From a virus (Duplodnaviria > Heunggongvirae > Uroviricota > Caudoviricetes): a stretch of 64,000 nt of DNA. Each line of letters begins with the position of its first letter. Position 1 is the first letter of the stretch. Below, piece after piece: positions 234 to 39,079 of the stretch. The DNA is taken from IMG/VR virus record IMGVR_UViG_2541047715_000004. The stretch is one strand, 5' to 3'. The notes under the pieces are model-generated. The model saw only the letters and a list, made by a program, of their open reading frames with translations, did not search any database and had not been told where the DNA came from. The position numbers and the translations under genes are program-made.

Positions 234-499
234 TGCTTAAATCGATTATTAATGGCGCTACAACCACCCCCACCCAACTGGCAAAAGAGATTGTCTTTTA
301 TCACGGTGAGTACGCTGTCATCGCACTGCCGTCAATTCTAGGCGCTGCCGGAATGAAAGCGACAGATCGCGAGTTTGGATTAGTCAGCGAGCAGGTCGTA
401 AAAATCCTCGCTCGTGTATCCAGACTCCTTAATCACGATGCGATTGTATTCGACGAATCCGCCGCTTTAAAACGAATCAACGAAACAAAAGGAGCCTGA
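227..499 (+). CDS. hypothetical protein
   Basis: 90-aa ORF, 4-bp overlap with upstream ORF, same strand as neighbours. Confidence 0.4.
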   Translation: MLMLKSIINGATTTPTQLAKEIVFYHGEYAVIALPSILGAAGMKATDREFGLVSEQVVKILARVSRLLNHDAIVFDESAALKRINETKGA

Positions 500-501
500 T
501 C

Positions 502-2841
502 ATGGCAAAAGGAAAATCCGCACTGGCACTTGCTCTGAAAAAGAAAATCGGTAGCAACGACGAAATTCAGAAAGTAACTCATTGGATTGACACAGGCTTT
601 CCTCCGTTAAACAAAGCTATTTCCGGTCGTTACGATGGCGGTTTCCCATGTGGTCGTATCGTAGAAGTATTCGGGCCACCAAGCGCGGGGAAATGTGTTA
701 CCGCAGACACCATGCTGCTGACGGAGCGTGGAATGGTAACAGTGAAAGAGTTGTTTGAGATTGAAGGGTACAAAGCGACATGCACTACTCGCGATGTAGA
801 GCATAACGTTGGACTCATCAATGAAAATGGCGTGATAGAGAAGACCTCACACCTGACATGGAACAACCGTCGCAAATTCAAGCGTATTAAGCTGGCATCA
901 GGCGGTTATATCGAGGCTACGTTCCGTCACCCAATCCGTGTGGTTGACGACTTAGGTAATGTCGTCTGGCGACATGCTGAAAAAATCAGTGTAGGCGACA
1001 CGATTCCTTCAATGGTTGGCACACATCAATTCGGCGATCAGCACCTGGATGCCAATATCGCAAAACTGATGGGCTATTTAATTGCTGACGGATACGTGGC
1101 CTCTGAAAATTCAGTGAATTTTTCTAACACAGATCCTTTCATCAAGGATGAGTACTACCGCCTCATTTCGCTGGTATCAGACAAGATGCCAGTTACGAGA
1201 AAACATAACGGCTCGGAAGACCATGTGCTGTTTAGCAAAGAGGTGCGTTCGCTGCTTTTTAAAGAATATGGTCTGGAGTATGAGAAAGCTGCTGGCAAGC
1301 AGGTTCCGTTGAGTGTGCGTCGCGCCAATAGCGAGGCTCAAATTGCATTCCTTCGCGGCTACTTTGAGCTGGAATGCCACGTCAATGATGGTCGCTGCAT
1401 TGAGGTTGTGAGCGCGAGTGGGCTGCTGCTACAGCAAATTCGCCTCATGCTCCTGAATCTGGGGATTACGTCAACTATCTCTGAAAAACACGTCGCGGGT
1501 TATGAAAATACATATTACCGGCTGTCATTCAGTGGCTCTAATTACGACCTTTTTCTGTCAACGATTGGTTTCGAATCTCCGGCACGTTTATCAGTGGCAA
1601 CCAAACGGGACATTGGTTTTGACCGCACTTACTCAGGCTATGTTCCGCACATCAGCGGCTTAGTGAAATCACTCTACGAGTCGCTCACCAAGACCACCCG
1701 TGAAGACTACGCTCTGGTAGACCACGTTATTGGCCGCGGCGATCGTGTCGGAATAGACAAACTGCGAGAAATCTATGTCTCCTTCATTGGCAGAAAGAAT
1801 CGTTTTAACGAGCATCTGTTTGCACAACTGGCAGCGGTAATTGGCTCTAACTTGTTCTACGACGAAGTCGTGGCTATTGAGGAAGGTGAAGCACCAACGT
1901 TCGACGTAGCGATGCCGGAAACACACTCTTTCTGGTCTAACGGGATTATCAGCCACAACACATTCCTTGCAACAGCAGCGATGATCTCCGCTCAAAAACA
2001 AGATGGTCTGGCGGTATTCCTCGATCATGAAAACAGTTTTGACGTTGGCCTGGCTGTAGCCAATGGCCTGAACGCAGATGAGGATGACGGTCAGTGGGTA
2101 TACAAGCAGCCAGATACCTTCGAAGACTCTGTAGAGTTGATCGGCACAATACTTAAATTGGTTCGTGATGAAGAGCTTATCCCCGAATCAGCACCTATCT
2201 GTATCGTGGCTGACTCTCTTGCGTCTATGGTTCCGAACTCCAAAGCCGAGAAGTTCGAAAAGATGGCTGAAGGCACAGCCAAAGACAAAGATCAGCTAAA
2301 CATGAACGACAATACGGCACTGGCTCGTGCGACGAGTGCGAACTTCCCTACTCTGGCTTTGTGGGCACGCAAATACAACGCCTGCATCATCTTCTTGAAT
2401 CAGGTTCGCACAAAAATCGGTGTAATGTTTGGCGACCCTACTACGTCGCCAGGTGGAGATTCACCGAAGTTCTACGCTTCTGTACGTATCCGTCTTGGTG
2501 CATCGGTGATGAAGGATGGTAAAGAGAAGATCGGCCAGGACGTAGGCGCAGAATGCATCAAAAACAAAGTTGCACCACCGTATGGCAAATGCACCTGGAA
2601 ATTCTACTTCGATCCTACTCGTGGCCTCGACGTTATCGAATCGCTCGTCGAGTACATGCTGGAAGAAGGATACCTGCCAAAGAACGCCAGCGGGCGAGTT
2701 GAAATTGGTGACAAGAAATACACCAAATCGCAGATCGTCGAGATGTATCGGGAGAAGCCACTGGCTGAAATCATTGCGGCTTTGCAGGCAATCGACGACC
2801 GAAGAGCAAAAGACAACCCCACCGAGCCAGTAGAAGAGTAA
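502..2841 (+). CDS. recA: RecA-family recombinase interrupted by an intein
   Basis: Extein motifs GRIVEVFGPPSAGK..T and LNQVRTKIGVMFGDPTTSPGGDSPKFYASVRIRL closely parallel E. coli RecA P-loop and L2 region; 779 aa because of a 422-aa insertion. Confidence 0.85.
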   Translation: MAKGKSALALALKKKIGSNDEIQKVTHWIDTGFPPLNKAISGRYDGGFPCGRIVEVFGPPSAGKCVTADTMLLTERGMVTVKELFEIEGYKATCTTRDVEHNVGLINENGVIEKTSHLTWNNRRKFKRIKLASGGYIEATFRHPIRVVDDLGNVVWRHAEKISVGDTIPSMVGTHQFGDQHLDANIAKLMGYLIADGYVASENSVNFSNTDPFIKDEYYRLISLVSDKMPVTRKHNGSEDHVLFSKEVRSLLFKEYGLEYEKAAGKQVPLSVRRANSEAQIAFLRGYFELECHVNDGRCIEVVSASGLLLQQIRLMLLNLGITSTISEKHVAGYENTYYRLSFSGSNYDLFLSTIGFESPARLSVATKRDIGFDRTYSGYVPHISGLVKSLYESLTKTTREDYALVDHVIGRGDRVGIDKLREIYVSFIGRKNRFNEHLFAQLAAVIGSNLFYDEVVAIEEGEAPTFDVAMPETHSFWSNGIISHNTFLATAAMISAQKQDGLAVFLDHENSFDVGLAVANGLNADEDDGQWVYKQPDTFEDSVELIGTILKLVRDEELIPESAPICIVADSLASMVPNSKAEKFEKMAEGTAKDKDQLNMNDNTALARATSANFPTLALWARKYNACIIFLNQVRTKIGVMFGDPTTSPGGDSPKFYASVRIRLGASVMKDGKEKIGQDVGAECIKNKVAPPYGKCTWKFYFDPTRGLDVIESLVEYMLEEGYLPKNASGRVEIGDKKYTKSQIVEMYREKPLAEIIAALQAIDDRRAKDNPTEPVEE
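694..1959 (+). mobile_element. intein with LAGLIDADG homing-endonuclease domain inserted in RecA Walker A motif
   Basis: Starts with Cys (TGT at 694) right after GPPSAGK, ends with His-Asn (1954-1959), +1 extein residue Thr; internal LMGYLIADGYV and LRGYFELECH motifs. Confidence 0.8.
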
Positions 2842-2845
2842 ACAC

Positions 2846-2870
2846 AAGGCGTCCTGTGGACGCCTTTTTA
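2846..2870 (+). terminator. rho-independent terminator
   Basis: Hairpin aaggcgtcc-tgtg-ggacgcctt followed by T-run. Confidence 0.6.
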
Positions 2871-2932
2871 TCTCTTGAAAATATATAAGTACTTACTTAT
2901 TATTTTCGCATAAAAACCACATAGGAAAACAC

Positions 2933-3133
2933 ATGATCAAAATCTATCTATTGGCAGTAGCCACAGGCCTTTCAGTGGCTCTCATCTACGGTTTACTGGT
3001 TCCGTCGCTGATTTCTACCAAGAGTGATTTAGCCGTCATGTTTGGAGTTGTCGTTGGTTTTGGTGCTCCTGTAATCGGTCTTATTGCTGGTCGTAAGTTT
3101 ATCAACTCATTAATCAAAGCAAAGGGGAAATAA
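2933..3133 (+). CDS. small hydrophobic membrane protein
   Basis: 66 aa, two predicted hydrophobic segments; directly upstream of SPFH gene. Confidence 0.45.
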   Translation: MIKIYLLAVATGLSVALIYGLLVPSLISTKSDLAVMFGVVVGFGAPVIGLIAGRKFINSLIKAKGK

Positions 3134-3136
3134 GTA

Positions 3137-3967
3137 ATGAAGAAAGGTTTACTTGCAGTTGCTCTGGCGGCTATTTGCACAATGGGTCTTACTGGCTGTG
3201 ATCGCGTGGAGCCTGGATACGTTGGCATCAAAGTAAACAAATTAGGTGAAGACAAAGGGATTGGTGAAGTGGTTGGCGTTGGTCGCCAATGGACAGGTCT
3301 TAACACCGAACTTTACGTATTCCCGACCTTCAAACAAATGAAGACCTACGACGAGCCGTTCACATTCCAGATGAGTGACGGTACTGCTATTGGTCACAAA
3401 ATTGGCGTTGCGTATCTGGTTAATCGTGACAAGGTAACGACGGTGTTCCAGACCTATCGCAAAGGCGTAGACGATATCACCGAATCAGATCTGCGTCAGA
3501 AAATTGCCGACTCTCTAAACCGTTTGGCCAGCCGTATGACCACTGACTCATTTATCGACGGTGGTAAGGCACAATTGCTGGACAACGCACTGAAAGATAT
3601 TCAGAAAGAGATGTCTCCGGTTGGTATTGAGGTACTGAGCCTGTCATGGGTTGGAAAGCCTGATTACCCAAAAACTGTCATTGAATCTATTAACGCCAAA
3701 GTAACGGCTAACCAGCGTACTCTGCAACGTCAGCAGGAAGTTGAACAACGTAAAGCTGAGGCGAATATGCTACGTGAACAGGCTAATGGTGAAGCTGATG
3801 CTATCCGTGCTCGTGCGCAAGCAGAAGCAGACGCCATTCGTCTGCGCGGTGAAGCTCTGCGTCAAAACCCGAACGTTATGGAACTGGAAGCCATCAATAA
3901 ATGGAATGGCCAGTTACCGCAGTACATGACTCAAGGGGCTAACACTCCTTTCATTACAGTGAAATAA
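3137..3967 (+). CDS. SPFH/band-7 domain lipoprotein
   Basis: Signal peptide with lipobox LTGC; central region and C-terminal coiled-coil (EADAIRARAQAEADAIRLRGEA) typical of SPFH family. Confidence 0.65.
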   Translation: MKKGLLAVALAAICTMGLTGCDRVEPGYVGIKVNKLGEDKGIGEVVGVGRQWTGLNTELYVFPTFKQMKTYDEPFTFQMSDGTAIGHKIGVAYLVNRDKVTTVFQTYRKGVDDITESDLRQKIADSLNRLASRMTTDSFIDGGKAQLLDNALKDIQKEMSPVGIEVLSLSWVGKPDYPKTVIESINAKVTANQRTLQRQQEVEQRKAEANMLREQANGEADAIRARAQAEADAIRLRGEALRQNPNVMELEAINKWNGQLPQYMTQGANTPFITVK

Positions 3968-5625: not shown

Positions 5626-6158
5626 ACCGCTGACAGCATACACAATCAACTGCCGCTGATAGCATATCGAGAGTCTATCTCACCGCTCACAGCATACTTT
5701 ACTCGATTTTTTACCGCTGACAGCATACTTAAGACATTGCATGAATAATGTGTACCGGTATGGGTATAACCAGAACAAAATTACCGCTGGCAGCATACGA
5801 AGGTCTGACATATGCCATTAATTACCGCTGATAGCATATCCAAACAAAAATTCCTCAATAAAACACCGCTGACAGCATACGTTCTATCAGGGAGCAGCAG
5901 GCAATAAATACCTTTCACTACAAGTAATCAGCGCAATGGGAATAGAATGTTAGTGAGCGCAAACCTATATGGAATGCACTCTTCGAGGTTAGTAACCACT
6001 GGGGAGGTATAAAAGAGCATTGAGTGGTGATAGATGATTTACCGCTCACAGCATACGTTTATCTCACTATACCGCTGGTAGCATATCTTTAACCGTTCAC
6101 AGCATACTTTTCAGAAAAATAGCCGCTGATAGCATACATTTCACCGCTGACAGCATAT
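5626..6158. repeat. iteron array (about 12 copies of ACCGCTGACAGCATAC-like 16-mer) downstream of rep
   Basis: Copies starting near 5626, 5653, 5682, 5713, 5783, 5824, 5865, 6041, 6071, 6092, 6122, 6143. Confidence 0.85.
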
Positions 6159-7252
6159 CAAAGCAGTTTGAGACTATTGGAAAGGATCTCAATCATCTTG
6201 ATATTTTCAGGCGTCAAATTCTGCGAAAGTTCGGTTATCTTATTGATAATGTTCTGTTTGGCATCAATTTCCCCGGCTTTCTCATCTGGTTTTTTGGGTT
6301 CGATGTCTTCAGGTTTTGGCGGTGCGACTTTGAGTTTTGGATTGCGGCTGTGAATCTGGATATAGATCGACCGCCCACGCTTAATCTCGCTGTATTCGAG
6401 ATAGCCCAAATCTTGGAGAGCTTTTAAGCCGTTACGTATAGTCTGATTCTGCGAGCTGACATTCCTGCTACTCAAATTGAGTCGCGCACGCAATCGAGCA
6501 AGCGATACCGGCGCAGGCTTGGTTGGAAGACTTTCGATGAAGGTGTACAGAGCCTGTGCTGTTTCTTTGCGTGGTAGCTTATTGATAACCTTTAACTGCA
6601 AAAGAACCTTATGGTCAAAGCGATATAGTTCGGCCAGCTTCGGTTCTGCATAGAACACCACCGTATCTTTCTGCTCGTTGTAGTCCACGCTATTGATGAG
6701 GTGCACCATCAGAAGCGAGATCTTGTTAGAGCCGTCGACGTTCTTTTCTTCATACGTTCTCTGGAAAGACAGAGTTGTACGCATGATCTTCAAAAGACTG
6801 TTTGTAAGCCGGTCGCGGAGTGTTTTGCGGATCTGTGACGATGGATAGCCACAAAACTTCGCAAATTTCGTGATGCTTAACTCGACACGACCATTAGGTT
6901 CGCCGTATTCTGCCAGCGAACGCACAACGCCCACCCACGTTTTGAAATCATGATCCATGTCCAGGCGAGGACCGGTTATCTTGATATCGGAATAGCCTTC
7001 AGAACGGGCTACTTCGAGCTGGACAAGCTCCTTTGAAGCATCGATCTCATTTGGCTTGTTACGTTTACTGTATTTTGTTCCCTTAAGCGTGGGGACGAAC
7101 AACCCCAGTCGCATCAACGCAATTGGTTGGACTGTATTGTTGCTATTAGGGACAAGTTCCCCTGTGTACAATTCAAGGGAACCTTCTTCAAAGTTGTCGA
7201 TGTTATCTTCTACTTCTTTGTTATTTTTACCTTTTTTATTTTTTGTGGACAT
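6158..7252 (-). CDS. repA: iteron-binding plasmid replication initiator (RepA-like)
   Basis: Flanked on both sides by iterons; start taken at internal Met (MSTKNKK...) because the first 40 codons of the listed ORF are just translated iterons. Confidence 0.65.
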   Translation of the reverse strand: MSTKNKKGKNNKEVEDNIDNFEEGSLELYTGELVPNSNNTVQPIALMRLGLFVPTLKGTKYSKRNKPNEIDASKELVQLEVARSEGYSDIKITGPRLDMDHDFKTWVGVVRSLAEYGEPNGRVELSITKFAKFCGYPSSQIRKTLRDRLTNSLLKIMRTTLSFQRTYEEKNVDGSNKISLLMVHLINSVDYNEQKDTVVFYAEPKLAELYRFDHKVLLQLKVINKLPRKETAQALYTFIESLPTKPAPVSLARLRARLNLSSRNVSSQNQTIRNGLKALQDLGYLEYSEIKRGRSIYIQIHSRNPKLKVAPPKPEDIEPKKPDEKAGEIDAKQNIINKITELSQNLTPENIKMIEILSNSLKLL

Positions 7253-7272
7253 GTGGACACCTTTGTCATTCA

Positions 7273-7374
7273 ACCGCTGACAGCATACTTGATTTGCCGC
7301 TGACAGAATACTAAAAACAGTTGGCAGCATACGGTGAACCGCTGACAGACTATCAATTACCGCTGACAGCATAC
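7273..7374. repeat. iteron array upstream of rep (4-5 copies)
   Basis: ACCGCTGACAGCATAC at 7273 and 7359, variants at 7296, 7338, partial at 7321. Confidence 0.8.
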
Positions 7375-28614: not shown

Positions 28615-31600
28615 CTATATCTGCCCACCTACTCCTTTGAACTTTTCAATAAACGTGACGATTTTCTGGAAAACGGTCTGTTTTTTCGTTTTATATTGCG
28701 GGTTTAACGGACTAAGTTTTGGTAATGTCTCGTTTAATTCTGTGCCATTTTCGGTGGCGTATTCGCGTTTTAAAGACGTGCGAATATAGCGTTTCGCCGC
28801 CTCTTCATTGAGATTTTCTTCTTTTATCAATGCTTCTGCTTCACGTTGCTGTTCGCGTTGAGCAAACGTAAAGAATGCCTCAATGATACTGGCTTTGTCT
28901 GGTAAATCATCCAGGTTCGTTTGCTGAATAAAATCGACCACCAGGCCCTCTTTCGCCCGGTTCCCCAGGCTTGAACGAATTAAGCGTTTGACCTCTTCGA
29001 TCATTTCGCCCTTGCCTTTATTTTGTCTGTTGTGTTCGAAAATCAGTCCAAGGATATAATCCAGGTTTATTTCCTGAGACTTCAGCAAATCGACCTCAAA
29101 AACTACGTCATCCCAGTCAGTGGTTGATTTCTCTTTTTTCTCAGCTTCTTTCTCACGGCGCTGCCAGTCGCGAATATCGTTATAGGCAGAACGATAATCC
29201 TGAATCTTGCGTTCAGCAGGGAGACGAATTGTTTGCAATTCAGCGAACTTTTCATCATCCACATAATGTTCTGCTTTGAATTTTTCTACCGCAACAGGAT
29301 CGCTAAGATCGATTTGTTGCAGGGCTTTCAGCGTGGCAAATTCATCATAGTTTTGCAGGATGTTCTCGGCACGCAGGTATTCACCAAACAGTTTTACGAA
29401 GTCTTTCTTCTCTTTTTCACTTTCAATACTGGCAGGGTCAGGGAACCGTTGTTCCAGTTCTGAAACTACTGCCATAAAGCCGCGTTTAGCTTCACCAGTG
29501 GCAGCATCTGTAAAGCCTTCCATATACTCAGCATAACTCTTTTCTAACACCACATTTTTAGTATTTTTATCACCAAACAGCGTTATGGCATCAATGGTTG
29601 AGCGTTCCAGATCCCGAAAAGTGACGATGTTACCGAAGGTTTTAGTAGCGTCATAAATGCGGTTGGTACGGGAGAATGCCTGCATCAGGCCGTGAAAACG
29701 CAAGTTTTTATCGACGAATAGCGTGTTCAATGTTGGAGCGTCGAAGCCGGTTAAAAACATCCCAACGACAATTAACAGATCGATATCCTGATTTTTAACC
29801 CGTTGGGCTAAATCACGATAGTAGTTCTGAAAACCGTTACTGTCGGTGCTGAAGTTAGTTTTAAAATAGCTGTTATACTCACGAATTGCAGCGTCAAGAA
29901 ACTCTTTAGCACTGCTGTCCATTGCGCTGGTATCAAAAGTTTCATCGGAAATTTCACCAATGGCATTTTGTTCTTCATTGGCGGCAAAGGAGAAGATTGT
30001 TGCAACACGCAGCGGTTTATAGGTAGCCGATTTATTAGCTGCTTCCTCTTGTAACCGTTTAAACGTCGCGTAATAGGCTTTCGCGGCATCCACGCTACTC
30101 ACTGCCAGCATGGCATTAAAGCCTTTGGAACCTGGGAAAGTACGGTGGGTCTTCTGGCGGAAGTTATTCAGAATATATTGCGTAATTTCCTGTATACGCA
30201 TGGGATGAAGAAATGCCTGCTGATTTTCAGCCGCACTCAGTTTTTTCTCGTCGGTTTCTGTCTCTAAAGATTTAAACTGTGGCCGCACATCGTTGTAGTC
30301 CACCTTGAATTTGAGCACTTTTTCATCACGAATCGCATCGGTAATTACATACGAATGCAATTCACGACCAAATACGCTGGCGGTCGTTTCTGAGCCTAAG
30401 GCGTTTTCCGGGAAAATAGGTGTGCCGGTAAAACCAAACTGATAATAGCGTTTGAATTTCTTCTTCAGGTTTTTCTGCGCTTCTCCAAACTGGCTGCGGT
30501 GACATTCATCAAATATAAACACCACTTGCTGATTGTATACAGGCAGGTCGCTTTCTGCTTTCATCAGGTTATTAAGTTTCTGAATAGTGGTGACGATAAT
30601 TTTGTTATCGTCCTTATCCAGATTGCGTTTAAGACCTGCGGTATTTTCCGAGCCGTTGACGCTGTCTGGCGAAAAACGCTTATATTCATTCATGGTCTGG
30701 TAATCGAGGTCTTTCCTGTCGACCACGAAGAAGACTTTATCAATAAAGTCCAGCTCTGTTGCCAGACGCGCGGCTTTAAAGCTGGTGAGGGTTTTACCTG
30801 AACCGGTAGTGTGCCAGATATACCCACCGCTTTCCGGTTTTGACCAGTTCTTCGCTGTAAAGGAACTCTTAATTTTCCACAGAATGCGCTCAGTGGCGGC
30901 AATCTGGTACGGTCGCATCACCAGTAGCGTTTGGCTAACATCGAATACGCTGTAGTTCACTAAGACATTAAGCAGGGTATGTTTCTGGAAAAAGGTGGCG
31001 GTAAAGTCTTTGAGGTCTTTAATCAGCGTGTTGTCTGATTTCGCCCAATTCATGGTGAAGTCAAAACTGTTTTTATCGCGCTTTGTCGTGTTGGCAAAGT
31101 AACGGGTATCGGTGCCGTTGGAAATGACAAACAGTTGCAGATACTTAAACAGAGAATTTTCGCTGTTAAAACTCTCTTTGCTGTAACGATGTATCTGGTT
31201 AAAGGCCTCACGAATCGCCACGCCGCGCTTTTTCAGTTCGATTTGTACCAGCGGTAAGCCATTAACCAGGATCGTGACGTCATAACGGTTAGCATGAGAA
31301 CCCGTCTGTTCAAACTGCTGGATAATCTGCACCTTGTTGCGCATGAGATTCTTTTTATCTATCAAATAGATGTTCTCAAGACGCTCGTCATCAAAAATAA
31401 AGTCGCAAATATAGTCGATATGGATTTTACGGGTCTTATCCAGGATGCCATCGCTCGGGTTATCCAGATACTGCTCCGTGAAACGCCGCCATTCGCTGTC
31501 ATTAAACACCACACCATTGAGGTTCTGAAGCTGTTCCCGAACGTTGGCCAGCATCGCCGACTGAGATTTTACGGAAATAAATTCATAGCCCTGATTCCGC

Positions 31601-31731
31601 AGATCCTGAATCAGTTCACGTTCCAGGTCCGATTCGCTCTGGTAGCTGTCGCCTGTTTGCTCGGCTTTGATGTACTTATCAAGAACGATAAAGTTATTGG
31701 ATTCAGCAATGGTGTGTGTCTGATGAGTCAT
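28615..31731 (-). CDS. hsdR: type I restriction enzyme R subunit (type IC, EcoR124-like)
   Basis: 1038 aa; N-terminus [22 protein letters not shown] matches my recollection of EcoR124I HsdR; helicase motifs [16 protein letters not shown]. Confidence 0.9.
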
Positions 31732-31852
31732 AGCGCATCCTTTGTGCCGTCTGGCAAGGGCCGGAAGGGCTTTAAGGGCGACTTCCGGCGTGTAAAAAAT
31801 AGTCTCTATATAGACCGGATGTTAAGGTGATCCGGTCGGTAGCAATGGTCAA

Positions 31853-33100
31853 TTAGTTACTGATAGTTTCAGGTTTGGGAAAACTGAACAGTAAATCACG
31901 ATAGTACTCGTATTGTTTCTGGCGCAACTCGATTTCACGCGGAAGACCTTCGGTGATGGAATTGGTCAAAGCATCAAATTTATCCAGTAATTTCACTATT
32001 TTTTGTTGTTCAACTAGCGATCTTTCAGGAGAATCAGGAAATGGTACTGGTATCATAAGTTTTCTTAAGTTATCATTATAAAGTCTTTTAATAGTTCCAC
32101 CTTCAGATATTCCCCATTTTGCTATTTTATAGAAATAGAATAAATATTTATTTAAAACTATTTTTTCATTATTTTCAATCCAGACAATATTGCTATCCTG
32201 GAAATATGATTCCCTACCATCAAATATAACAGTCCTGCCGATGGTCCCACTGGCAGAAATCAATACTTCGCCAACTTTAGGATAACTATATTTTTCTTTA
32301 AATTCATTAAATAGTTTTCTAGATATATAGGAATCGGGTTCCTTACCAAATGTCCCAATTTTATAAAATGGAATCTCTCCCTCAGAAGATGTTTGTGATT
32401 TTAGGATTCGTTTACACATACGAACTTCACCAATTTCCCCCAAAGCTTTCCACTCAACCTCACCCTCTTTAAAACTCAACAACTGGTCGCGATAGTAGTT
32501 GTATTGTTTTTTACGCATGCTAAGCTCAGCGGTAAGCTCAGCGGTAAGTGCAGTAAATTTATCCAGAATCCTGACGATTTCAGACTGGATAGCCAGCGAC
32601 TTTTCCGGGTTGTTGGGGCAAGGGATGGGGATAAGTAATTTACCTATATCTTTAGCATACAAATGATAAACAGTAGAACCTTTAACCATTTGCAATATCT
32701 TTTTTTTGTTATTTATTATGAAATTACTTAGATATCTACCATCAACACCAGAGCATCTAATAATCAAAATATCGCCGCCTAAAATAACGCCACTTTCTTG
32801 AATGCAACTAGCTGTAGCCAAACCTCTTGGTGTAACGTCTGACGTTGGCATTAGAACATCATTTTTTTCAGATAGAATTGACTCATTGATTGCTTGGTTT
32901 GTTTTTGAGCATACTTTGTCAATTATGGGACCATAATGAGTGAAAAGCTCACCGTAATGAATACAATATCTATTGCCATCTGGAGTTATTTTTTCTTTAG
33001 GTAAAGACTTCCCTTTTAAAAAAGTTGCTAATTTATTTAATGCTACCCACTCAACCTCAGCCCCATCCAGCAGTTTTTCCAGATAACTCAGCTCGCTCAT
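31853..33100 (-). CDS. hsdS: type I restriction-modification specificity subunit (type IC)
   Basis: Two target-recognition domains separated by conserved central region containing TAELTAEL; conserved C-terminal [22 protein letters not shown]. Confidence 0.9.
32522..32545 (-). repeat. 2 x 12-bp tandem repeat encoding TAEL-TAEL in hsdS central conserved region
   Basis: aagctcagcggt repeated twice on + strand (ACCGCTGAGCTT on coding strand). Confidence 0.85.
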
Positions 33101-34659
33101 GCCTGTACCTCGCTACCTTCAATCTCAGCAACAATCGCATCAATATCTTTACGCAACTGGTCGATTTTGCTGACCGTGGTTTTCAGCTCAGCATTCAGCT
33201 CAGCGATATCGATAATTTCGCGAGTATCTTTCGCTTCCACATAGCTGCTCACCGACAGGTTATAGTCATTCGCGACAACAGTCTCAAACGCAACAGATTT
33301 CGCCAGATGAGCAACATCTTCCTTGCTGGCAAATACCTGCATAATCTGTTCGATATGAGCATCGGTCAGAATGTTGTTGTTAGTCTCTTTTTTGAACAGT
33401 TCGCTGGCATCAATAAACTGAACTTTGGTATCCGTTTTATGTTTAGACAGCACCAGAATATTGACGGCAATAGTGGTGCCAAAGAACAGATTCGGTGCCA
33501 GTGAAATCACGGTTTCGACATAGTTATTGTCGACCAGATACTGACGGATTTTCTGCTCCGCGCCGCCACGGTAAAAAATGCCTGGGAAGCAGACAATCGC
33601 AGCGCGACCTTTGGCCGAAAGATAGTTCAGCGCATGTAATACAAACGCAAAGTCAGCTTTGGATTTGGGGGCCAGAACGCCAGCCGGGGCAAAACGTTCA
33701 TCGTTAATCAGCGTCGGGTCATCGCTGCCAATCCATTTCACCGAATACGGCGGGTTAGAAACGATGGCATCAAACGGTTTTTCATCTCTGAAGTGCGGCT
33801 CAGTCAGTGTATTACCCAGCTTGATATCAAACTTGTCGTAGTTGATGTTGTGCAAAAACATGTTCATACGCGCCAGGTTATAGGTCGTATGGTTGATTTC
33901 CTGACCAAAAAAACCTTCTTCGATGATATGGTCATCAAACTGTTTTTTCGCCTGCAACAACAGCGAACCGGAGCCTGCTGCCGGGTCGTAGATTTTGTTA
34001 ACGTGGGTCTGCCCGTGCATAGCCAGTTGTGCAATCAGCTTAGAGACGTGCTGCGGTGTAAAGAACTCGCCGCCGGACTTACCGGCATTCGCCGCATAGT
34101 TAGAAATCAGGAACTCATAGGCGTCACCGAACAGGTCAATCTGATGTTCATGGAAGTCACCAAGTTTTAGCCCTTCAACCCCTTTCAGAACCGCAGCCAA
34201 GCGGGCATTTTTATCTTTAACGGTGTTACCCAGGCGGTTACTGGTGGTATCGAAATCAGCAAACAAACCTTTGATGTCAGCTTCTGAAGGATAACCGTAA
34301 GCAGAACTTTCGATAGCAACGAAGATGCTGTTTAAATCTGCATTCAGTCTGTCATTAGTATTTGCTTTCGCAGCTACGTTGCAGAAAAGCTGACTGGGGT
34401 AGATGAAGTAGCCTTTAGTTTTGATGGCATCGTCTTTAATGTCATCAGTAATTACGCTGTCATCCAGTTTCGCATAACAGATACTGTCATCACCGGCTTC
34501 AATATAACTGGAAAAATTTTCGCTGATAAAACGGTAAAAAAGCGCGCCCAAAACGTACTGCTTAAAATCCCATCCATCGACTGAACCCCTGACATCGTTA
34601 GCAATTTGCCAGATCTGGCGATGAAGCTCTGCACGTTGTTGAATACTTGTCATTTTCAT
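33097..34659 (-). CDS. hsdM: type I restriction-modification methyltransferase subunit
   Basis: N6-adenine MTase motifs including NPPYS; stop overlaps hsdS start (ATGA). Confidence 0.9.
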
Positions 34660-36888: not shown

Positions 36889-37045
36889 CCCGTCTCCTTT
36901 ATTTTAATTTGCGCAATTGTCGCCTTGTAGTGTACTCCAGCTACGACATTTAATCATTTATGAGAAATGCTGTTATCACATGGCAGACATAAGGCCATTT
37001 TGTTACTATCAAGCCCCTTTTCACTACAAAGAAGTAATGCCTACT

Positions 37046-39079
37046 ATGACCCAAGTCGCGAAGAAAATTCTGGTGACGTGCGCGCTGCCGTACGCTAACG
37101 GCTCAATCCACCTCGGCCATATGCTGGAGCACATCCAGGCTGATGTCTGGGTTCGTTACCAGCGAATGCGCGGCCACGAGGTTAATTTCATCTGTGCCGA
37201 CGATGCCCACGGTACGCCGATCATGCTGAAAGCACAGCAGCTTGGTATCACACCGGAGCAGATGATTGGCGAAATGAGTCAGGAACACCAGACTGATTTC
37301 GCAGGCTTTAACATCAGCTATGACAACTATCACTCGACGCACAGCGAAGAGAACCGCCAGCTGTCTGAGCTTATCTATACTCGCCTGAAAGAGAACGGTT
37401 TTATTAAAAACCGCACTATCTCTCAGTTGTACGACCCGGAAAAAGGCATGTTCCTGCCGGATCGTTTTGTGAAAGGCACCTGCCCGAAATGTAAAGCGCC
37501 AGATCAATACGGCGATAACTGTGAAGTCTGCGGCGCAACATATAGCCCGACTGAATTGATCGAGCCGAAATCGGTGGTTTCTGGCGCTACCCCGGTAATG
37601 CGTGATTCCGAACACTTCTTCTTTGATCTGCCTTCTTTCAGCGAAATGTTGCAGGCATGGACCCGCAGCGGCGCGTTGCAGGAGCAGGTGGCGAACAAAA
37701 TGCAGGAATGGTTTGAATCCGGCCTGCAACAGTGGGATATCTCCCGAGATGCGCCTTACTTCGGTTTTGAAATTCCGAACGCGCCGGGCAAATATTTCTA
37801 CGTCTGGCTGGACGCGCCGATTGGCTACATGGGTTCCTTCAAGAATCTGTGCGACAAACGCGGCGACACTACCAGCTTCGACGAATACTGGAAGAAAGAC
37901 TCCACCGCCGAGCTGTACCACTTCATCGGTAAAGATATCGTTTACTTCCACAGCCTGTTCTGGCCTGCCATGCTGGAAGGCAGCAACTTCCGCAAGCCGA
38001 CCAACCTGTTTGTTCACGGCTATGTGACGGTGAACGGCGCGAAGATGTCCAAGTCTCGCGGCACCTTTATTAAAGCCAGCACCTGGCTGAATCATTTTGA
38101 CGCCGACAGCCTGCGTTACTACTACACTGCGAAACTCTCTTCGCGCATTGATGATATCGATCTCAACCTGGAAGATTTTGTTCAGCGCGTGAATGCCGAT
38201 ATCGTGAACAAAGTGGTTAACCTGGCCTCCCGTAATGCAGGTTTTATCAACAAACGTTTTGACGGCGTGCTGGCAAGCGAACTGGCTGACCCGCAACTGT
38301 ACAAAACCTTCACTGATGCCGCTGAAGTGATTGGTGAAGCGTGGGAAAGCCGCGAATTTGGCAAAGCTATCCGTGAAATCATGTCACTGGCTGACCTGGC
38401 TAACCGCTATGTTGATGAACAGGCTCCGTGGGTGGTGGCGAAGCAGGAAGGCCGCGATGCCGACCTGCAGGCGATTTGCTCTATGGGCATTAACCTGTTC
38501 CGCGTGCTGATGACGTACCTGAAACCGGTACTGCCGAAACTGACTGAACGTGCAGAAGCATTCCTGAATACAGAACTGACCTGGGATGGTATCCAGCAAC
38601 CGCTGCTGGGCCATAAAGTGAATCCGTTCAAGGCACTGTATAACCGTATCGATATGAAACAGGTGGAAGCACTGGTGGAAGCATCCAAAGAAGAAGTGAA
38701 AGCCACAGCTGCACAGGTAACTGGCCCACTGGCTGACGACCCGATTCAGGAAACCATCACCTTTGACGACTTCGCCAAAGTTGACCTGCGTGTGGCGCTG
38801 ATTGAAAACGCGGAGTTTGTCGAAGGTTCTGACAAACTGCTGCGTCTGACACTGGATCTCGGTGGTGAAAAGCGTAATGTCTTCTCAGGCATCCGTTCTG
38901 CTTATCCAGACCCACAGGCACTGATTGGTCGTCACACCATTATGGTGGCTAACCTGGCTCCGCGTAAAATGCGCTTCGGTATCTCCGAAGGCATGGTGAT
39001 GGCTGCTGGCCCCGGCGGGAAAGATATCTTCCTGTTAAGCCCGGATGCTGGTGCTAAACCAGGCCACCAGGTTAAGTAA
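37046..39079 (+). CDS. metG: methionyl-tRNA synthetase
   Basis: 677 aa, near-identical in pattern to E. coli MetG (HIGH motif [13 protein letters not shown], zinc knuckles CPKC...CEVC); true start ATG 37046 inside the longer listed ORF. Confidence 0.95.

Follow-up and report, generated by a model that had tools for sequence, protein, structure and literature searches.

P-loops are the commonest sites of intein insertion, as stated in the passages of PMC4760082 and PMC4513877 that deal with this point, and the Lys/Thr point of the Walker A motif is regarded as the "classic" P-loop insertion (PMC5050341; slashes between residues or codons mark the insertion point). The mycobacteriophage TerL1-a, DnaB-b, MCM-a and RFC-a inteins are of this kind, with an xxGK/C...HN/T arrangement in Walker A motifs of ATPases from phages or replisomes. 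Within the RecA/RadA family, and according to the parts of PMC4513877 devoted to them, the mini-inteins of Pyrococcus horikoshii and Thermococcus sibiricus RadA (c1) occupy the end of the Walker A loop, whereas the RecA inteins of Mycobacterium tuberculosis (site a, residue 252) and M. leprae (site b, residue 206) lie at the monomer-monomer interface and not in the P-loop. Table 1 of the same paper (Topilina et al. 2015, NAR 43:6631) also lists RecA inteins designated "c2 (65-486)" in eight E. coli strains including MS 145-7 (UniProt E1IXC8), as well as in Enterobacter cloacae BWH 29, Enterobacter sp. MGH 26 and Salmonella enterica. Here we analyze a stretch of 64,000 nucleotides (nt) of viral DNA (IMG/VR record IMGVR_UViG_2541047715_000004, hereafter the window), which is an SSU5-like phage-plasmid of E. 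coli and in which the gene of a RecA-family recombinase is interrupted by an intein inside its Walker A motif.

This intein is the same element as c2: the coordinates 65-486 and the Lys/Thr insertion point in the RecA Walker A motif are identical to those in the entries of Table 1 just cited, and the gene is found, with 99.9% identity, on the plasmid of E. coli MS 145-7. The intein is already known, being listed in 2015 and named in some RefSeq products, and its detection has little weight as a discovery, since Lys/Thr P-loop inteins are commoner than any other kind, the RecA/RadA family is known as a favored host and the element has been published. Our literature search found the intein listed only in Topilina et al. 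(2015), and no paper linking it to SSU5-like phage-plasmids. In the passages of Topilina et al. that concern it, it is presented as a bacterial RecA intein, "prophage" does not appear, the occurrences of "plasmid" shown refer to laboratory constructs and the homing signature described below is absent. Here, in contrast, the carrier is a gene of SSU5-like phage-plasmids: among 5426 complete E. coli genomes, 250 contain the recombinase gene, plasmid-borne every time, and no chromosomal copy was found. The present analysis thus places the "first E. coli intein" on SSU5-like phage-plasmids and not in chromosomal recA, and adds a clean signature indicating that the intein has recently homed in lineages of Escherichia, Klebsiella and Enterobacter, in which it is at intermediate frequency and intein-free siblings are available. 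The system would lend itself to work on how an intein homes and splices in E. coli as its native host.

A first-pass annotation made from the sequence alone had proposed a RecA-like recombinase split in its Walker A motif, between GPPSAGK and T, by an intein of 422 amino acids (aa) at positions 694-1959, and this proposal was borne out both by domain searches and by natural alleles devoid of the intein. The precursor, encoded by a single open reading frame (ORF), matches three Pfam families above their curated cut-offs, namely RecA (PF00154; 125.5 bits over two stretches, cut-off 27), LAGLIDADG_3 (PF14528; 63.4 bits, cut-off 22.5) and Intein_splicing (PF14890; 44.3 bits, cut-off 35.8). It also matches from end to end the 779-position profile phrog_9666, whose label in PHROGs is "unknown function". 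The comparison with intein-free relatives was equally clear. The alleles of Escherichia phage CMS-2020a (357 aa) and of Salmonella phage SSU5 (gp060, 358 aa) are natural in-frame empty sites that are without exactly nt 694-1959; at the DNA level they read ...GGGAAA/ACG... and ...GGTAAA/ACC..., the slash falling exactly where nt 694-1959 lie in the window, and the CMS-2020a sequence spanning the junction is …GGTCCTCCAAGTGCAGGGAAA/ACGTTCCTTGCAACAGCAGCG…. The CMS-2020a protein is one residue off the predicted ligated extein, whose junction peptide would be ...VFGPPSAGK-TFLATAAMISAQK. Because the CMS-2020a allele is the predicted ligation product bar one residue, and because SSU5 gp060 is intein-free as well, the boundaries of the intein are exact, as were the coordinates first proposed. 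The intein is present in the alleles of Escherichia phage Cyrano and Klebsiella phage vB_KpnS_p4727. A chance or mis-called ORF is ruled out by the three Pfam families together with the natural empty-site alleles.

What interrupts the RecA-family recombinase at the classic P-loop point is a standard class 1 intein. Its sequence begins with CVTADT... and ends with ...GIISHN, followed by Thr, and it contains all the residues by which class 1 inteins are recognized (Cys1, Thr76-x-x-His79, His421-Asn422 and Thr+1). The Cys1, the terminal His-Asn, the +1 Thr and the LAGLIDADG motifs read from the sequence by the first-pass annotation are all present. There are two such motifs, LMGYLIADG at intein residues 125-133 and LRGYFELEC at residues 220-228, each with an acidic residue at position 8 (Asp132 and Glu227, respectively). 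The NCBIfam profile TIGR01445 (intein_Nterm) is also matched, with a score of 35.4 for a cut-off of 24.5. An AlphaFold2 model of the intein (pLDDT 81, pTM 0.85) was compared by Foldseek with known structures, and the best matches were full-length intein homing endonucleases, TliVMA (7qss; 7.8e-20), PI-PfuI (1dq3), PI-TkoII (2cw7) and PI-SceI, with mini-inteins, including those of P. horikoshii RadA and M. tuberculosis RecA, and I-DmoI lower in the list. A sequence search of the PDB agreed with Foldseek, with intein-endonuclease matches down to 8e-8. A free-standing endonuclease gene or a gene fusion is ruled out by the in-frame insertion, the Cys1, His-Asn and Thr+1 residues and the HINT profile and fold.

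The relatives of the intein also point to this insertion site. In a word-indexed search, every relative at 28-45% identity was a RecA-family protein interrupted at the same GxxxxGK/C...HN/T point, and these include bona fide RecA proteins with GPESSGK/C. An exhaustive HMMER search recovered 4662 cluster representatives with E-values of at most 1e-3, and junction residues were scored in the best 130 homologs having both junctions inside the protein: Cys1 and the terminal His-Asn were each found in 129 of them, and the +1 residue was Thr, Ser or Cys in all 130. The GxxxxGK/C arrangement is present in 88, with RecA-like exteins in 84 of these 88, and the remaining homologs are mostly other P-loop proteins with ...GK/C...HN/T or S. 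The host proteins of the classic P-loop inteins differ from ours, and many of the closest non-RecA homologs lie at this same kind of site. The likeness to structurally characterized systems is more remote. TliVMA, PI-PfuI, PI-TkoII and PI-SceI share the HINT domain and the two-motif LAGLIDADG organization (Foldseek E-values from 7.8e-20 to 1e-8, TM-scores of 0.6-0.68), but with 14-21% sequence identity, archaeal or yeast hosts and other host proteins. The P. horikoshii RadA intein shares the HINT fold (4e2t, E-value 4e-5) and, with that of T. sibiricus, the insertion point, where the Walker A loop of RecA/RadA-family ATPases ends. However, these RadA mini-inteins are archaeal, about 170 aa long and endonuclease-free, they have little sequence similarity to c2, and they are judged to result from an independent invasion in the passages of PMC4513877 that discuss them; conditional splicing is a feature shown for the RadA mini-inteins. 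Finally, the M. tuberculosis and M. leprae RecA inteins share a RecA-family host and the HINT domain (2in8, 2in0 and 5i0a match at about 1e-3), but their sequences are unrelated to that of c2, and identity with either of them is ruled out by their sites a and b, which are not in the P-loop.

Removal of nt 694-1959, as the first-pass annotation had suggested, leaves an extein of 357 aa that gives an unbroken alignment to E. coli RecA through Walker A, Walker B and loop L2 (GPPSAGKT with GPESSGKT, LDHENSFD with IDAEHALD, ICIVADS with VIVVDS, and the L2 region NQVRTKIGVMFGDPTTSPGG). The proposed comparison with the RecA, UvsX and Sak4 families favors the first of these: the ligated extein matches many RecA structures with E-values of 1e-30 to 1e-35, and far more weakly the solved structures of UvsX (2.3e-9 to 1.1e-5) and of RadA. 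The phrog_97 family, labeled "UvsX-like recombinase", is matched at 1.4e-91, and no Sak4-named family was found in the NCBIfam and PHROGs searches of the protein. We rejected a UvsX or Sak4 assignment on the ground that RecA structures match far better than UvsX structures. We also rejected the possibility that the gene is the chromosomal recA, because all 252 places at which it occurs in E. coli genomes are on plasmids and because the score against the bacterial RecA equivalog TIGR02012 (132.6 bits) is below the cut-off of 325.3; the score against the "intein-containing recombinase RecA" family NF007072 (100.8 bits) is likewise below its cut-off of 1024. Judged by these comparisons, the protein is a divergent RecA-family recombinase of phage-plasmids, paralogous and not orthologous to chromosomal RecA. 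Annotations of the gene vary: in PLSDB and RefSeq it is named "LAGLIDADG family homing endonuclease", "hint domain-containing protein", "recombinase RecA" or "intein-containing recombinase RecA", and in the record of phage PhiR41_1 "hypothetical protein". Many RefSeq copies bear only the endonuclease name (and phage records "hypothetical protein"), which hides the recombinase. Among the plasmid matches listed, the intein DNA falls under RecA, LAGLIDADG family homing endonuclease, intein-containing recombinase RecA or no annotated feature.

The explanation that we favor is based on the anatomy of the element, its fold and conserved catalytic residues, the exact empty sites and a population signature of recent horizontal spread with co-conversion; splicing, cleavage specificity and the setting of homing are inferred. 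On this sequence evidence, the gene very probably encodes a RecA-family strand-exchange ATPase of an SSU5-like phage-plasmid, split by a self-splicing, full-length class 1 intein with a homing endonuclease. The 779-aa precursor cannot form a P-loop. Splicing would start with an N-S acyl shift at Cys1, proceed through transesterification to the hydroxyl of Thr+1 and His421-assisted cyclization of Asn422, and end with an O-N shift. GPPSAGKT would thereby be restored, and the products would be a recombinase of 357 aa and the excised intein of 422 aa. As a LAGLIDADG endonuclease, the excised intein, or the precursor itself, would cut the intein-free allele across the junction in cells that harbor two related phage-plasmids; with the intein-bearing copy as template, repair would then transfer the intein and a few flanking bases to the empty allele.

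We compared six intein-bearing alleles belonging to three extein lineages, one made of the window and Cyrano, the second of SSU5-like alleles of Enterobacter and of E. coli B379, and the third of Klebsiella alleles. Intein-free siblings are present among the alleles examined for the window lineage (CMS-2020a) and for the second lineage (SSU5), and many Klebsiella plasmid records are without the intein. Between lineages, DNA identity is 96.8-100% for the intein and 79-86% for the exteins; between Klebsiella phage p4727 and E. coli pB379_2, for instance, the inteins are 100.0% identical and the exteins 84.9% and 84.6%. When the window is compared with the other lineages, the synonymous divergence (dS) is 0.09 in the intein and 1.0-1.6 in the exteins, and the ratio of non-synonymous to synonymous divergence (dN/dS) is 0.15 in the intein (25 synonymous and 13 non-synonymous changes) and about 0.01 in the exteins. 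In addition, intein-bearing alleles of different lineages have in common about 24 nt on the upstream side of the junction and 8 nt on its downstream side, stretches that differ in their intein-free siblings. All intein-bearing alleles examined use ACA as the Thr+1 codon, and the two intein-free ones use ACG or ACC. Such shared tracts are the pattern expected of gene conversion initiated by an endonuclease and indicate recent homing. The cross-lineage identity, the contrast in dS and the shared junction tracts thus support the initial view of the intein as a selfish homing element, which seems to be still on the move.

Intein-bearing alleles also bear on the possibility that the insertion inactivated the gene, in which case the precursor would remain unspliced and the recombinase would be a pseudogene in intein-bearing elements. 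Within lineages, 40 synonymous and only 3 non-synonymous changes separate the exteins of such alleles, so that the recombinase is still under purifying selection, which requires splicing; this implies that the intein splices in these alleles. Moreover, the intein-bearing frame is intact in more than 200 plasmids and every splicing residue is present, so that inactivation seems highly improbable. In PLSDB, the intein was found in about 237-248 of the 736 records holding the gene (about a third), with marked differences between genera: 123 of 229 in Escherichia, 71 of 269 in Klebsiella, 41 of 91 in Enterobacter, 1 of 42 in Salmonella and 0 of 63 in Yersinia. Among the complete E. coli genomes with the recombinase gene, 114 of 250 contain it. 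Among the plasmid matches listed and in the phage collection, we found no intein DNA in other genes; in the phage collection only Cyrano, PhiR41_1 and Klebsiella phage p4727 carry it.

Some plasmid copies are disrupted. In E. albertii plasmid CP043243, an insertion of 1162 bp (locus 2272-3433) with a 3-bp overlap or duplication lies in the C-extein, at a point equivalent to nt 2272 of the window, and in plasmid CP059946 the match to the intein is broken up over 2045 bp, which implies an insertion of about 780 bp inside the intein. Neither of these two copies is annotated as a coding sequence. A short match in plasmid CP057440 (52 kb) is a remnant of the intein end and of the C-extein.

Several points weigh against the explanation that we favor. 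The second LAGLIDADG motif, LRGYFELEC, ends with a Cys and not a Gly, and full endonuclease activity is accordingly not guaranteed by the sequence. Thr+1 is a weaker nucleophile than Cys or Ser, and splicing could be slow or conditional. Our literature search found no report of splicing or cleavage for this intein. Its absence from Yersinia records and rarity in Salmonella could reflect a lack of contact or resistant target sites, and its high identity across lineages could be due in part to ordinary recombination, and not to endonuclease-driven homing, when phage-plasmids reside together in a cell. In the alleles compared, homing is favored, though not proved, by the exactness of the junctions and by the shortness of the flanking tracts.

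The first of these points raises the alternative that the intein splices but that its endonuclease is inactive or decaying, so that the element would be inherited vertically or moved by general recombination only. Decay does occur in this intein family, as the endonuclease regions of the distant homologs P0007, P0012 and P0013 are shortened or degenerate, and the insertions that disrupt some plasmid copies, like the Cys in place of the final Gly, are in line with it. On the other hand, an intein 97-100% identical between lineages whose exteins are 15-20% divergent, with a dS ten-fold below that of the exteins, is not what this alternative predicts, nor are co-conversion tracts confined to tens of bases at the junction; the intein dN/dS of 0.15 and the retention of both catalytic acidic residues also speak for a functional enzyme. 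We think it improbable that the endonuclease is inactive or decaying, and the nested LAGLIDADG homing endonuclease is, from its sequence, probably active.

Another possibility is that the intein was recruited as a post-translational, conditional switch, which would keep the recombinase off until a signal such as redox state, temperature, single-stranded DNA or the lytic cycle allows splicing. The model would be the P. horikoshii RadA intein, for which an insertion at the same point results in extein-controlled, temperature-dependent splicing (PMC5790916 and PMC4513877, in the passages on this intein), and the combination of Cys1 with the weakly nucleophilic Thr+1 would make redox-sensitive or slow splicing plausible. 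Such a role is compatible with a self-splicing homing intein and would add to that explanation instead of replacing it. However, alleles without the intein are frequent in the same lineages and hosts, which indicates that it is dispensable, and it has recently spread horizontally in the way of a selfish element; the extein-intein orientation of the RadA type is reported, in the part of PMC4513877 that treats it, to be sterically not feasible for the E. coli RecA precursor. Co-option is in our view unlikely. It is a rather doubtful idea that the switch might be silent in plasmid-like lysogeny and spliced upon induction or stress, and that phage-plasmids may also carry the homing intein between enterobacterial genera; if true, it would provide a natural system of intein homing and conditional splicing open to direct study in E. 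coli.

The features of the recombinase gene are collected in table 1.

Table 1. Positions in the window of the intein-containing recombinase gene and its parts
Feature	Position (nt)	Strand	Basis or remark
Shine-Dalgarno sequence AGGAG	490..494	+	7 nt 5' of the ATG start codon; read from sequence
Stop codon of upstream 90-aa ORF	497-499		Ends 2 nt before the ATG; read from sequence
Precursor ORF, intein-containing RecA-family recombinase, 779 aa + stop	502..2841	+	Pfam; phrog_9666 match 1-779 of 779
N-extein, 64 aa; 3' end is Walker A GPPSAGK at nt 673-693	502..693	+	
Intein, 422 aa, precursor residues 65-486; HINT splicing domain with nested LAGLIDADG endonuclease	694..1959	+	Empty-site alleles, Pfam, fold
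Cys1 codon TGT, predicted first splicing nucleophile	694..696	+	Cys1 in 129/130 homologs
Block B ATFRHP with TxxH (intein Thr76, His79)	916..933	+	TxxH kept in all homologs covering the region (alignment)
First LAGLIDADG motif LMGYLIADGY; acidic residue intein Asp132	1066..1095	+	
Pfam LAGLIDADG_3 match, precursor aa 279-356	1336-1569	+	
Second LAGLIDADG motif FLRGYFELECH; acidic residue intein Glu227	1348..1380	+	Inside the Pfam LAGLIDADG_3 match
Blocks F and G (PTFDVAMPETHSF ... NGIISHN), terminal His421-Asn422	1894..1959	+	HN in 129/130 homologs
C-extein, 293 aa + stop; first residue Thr+1 (ACA), the Walker A Thr	1960..2841	+	
C-extein motifs: catalytic Glu region LDHENSFD, Walker B ICIVADS, L2 region NQVRTKIGVMFGDPTTSPGG	within 1960..2841	+	

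The surroundings of the gene are those of an SSU5-like phage-plasmid. The first 6 kb of the window are 98% identical to Escherichia phages PhiR41_1 and Cyrano, are covered at 79% by CMS-2020a and are also related to Salmonella phage SSU5 and to Klebsiella phage-plasmids. The adjoining genes encode a gp32-like single-stranded DNA-binding protein (SSB), a 5'-3' exonuclease, an SPFH protein and RepA, and genes for SbcCD, RuvC, ribonucleotide reductase and other proteins of DNA metabolism are found farther downstream.

The RepA-like ORF (6158-7372, minus strand; Pfam Rep3_N) is 404 aa long from the first possible start, and the annotated RepA proteins of Cyrano and SSU5 are about 351-354 aa; the true start codon probably lies downstream of the mechanical ORF start. 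A complete type I restriction-modification operon identified by Pfam occupies 28615-34659 on the minus strand (hsdR 28615-31731, hsdS 31853-33100 and hsdM 33097-34659), and DUF4942 and Ea22-like genes are annotated instead at the corresponding place in the 98% identical Cyrano, which suggests that the hsd region is variable cargo or a defense island of the phage-plasmid. No tRNA gene was found within the 64-kb window; a methionyl-tRNA synthetase with a C-terminal tRNA-binding domain is encoded at 36917-39079 on the plus strand, and is annotated in Cyrano too. Finally, the last 12 or so codons of the recombinase gene (positions 2800-2841) encode …RRAKDNPTEPVEE in the window and …RREKTSPTEELED in Cyrano, the rest of the gene being 99% identical. 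The tail of the CMS-2020a recombinase is that of the window, and the difference between the window and Cyrano suggests that a recombination event had its breakpoint at the gene's 3' end.

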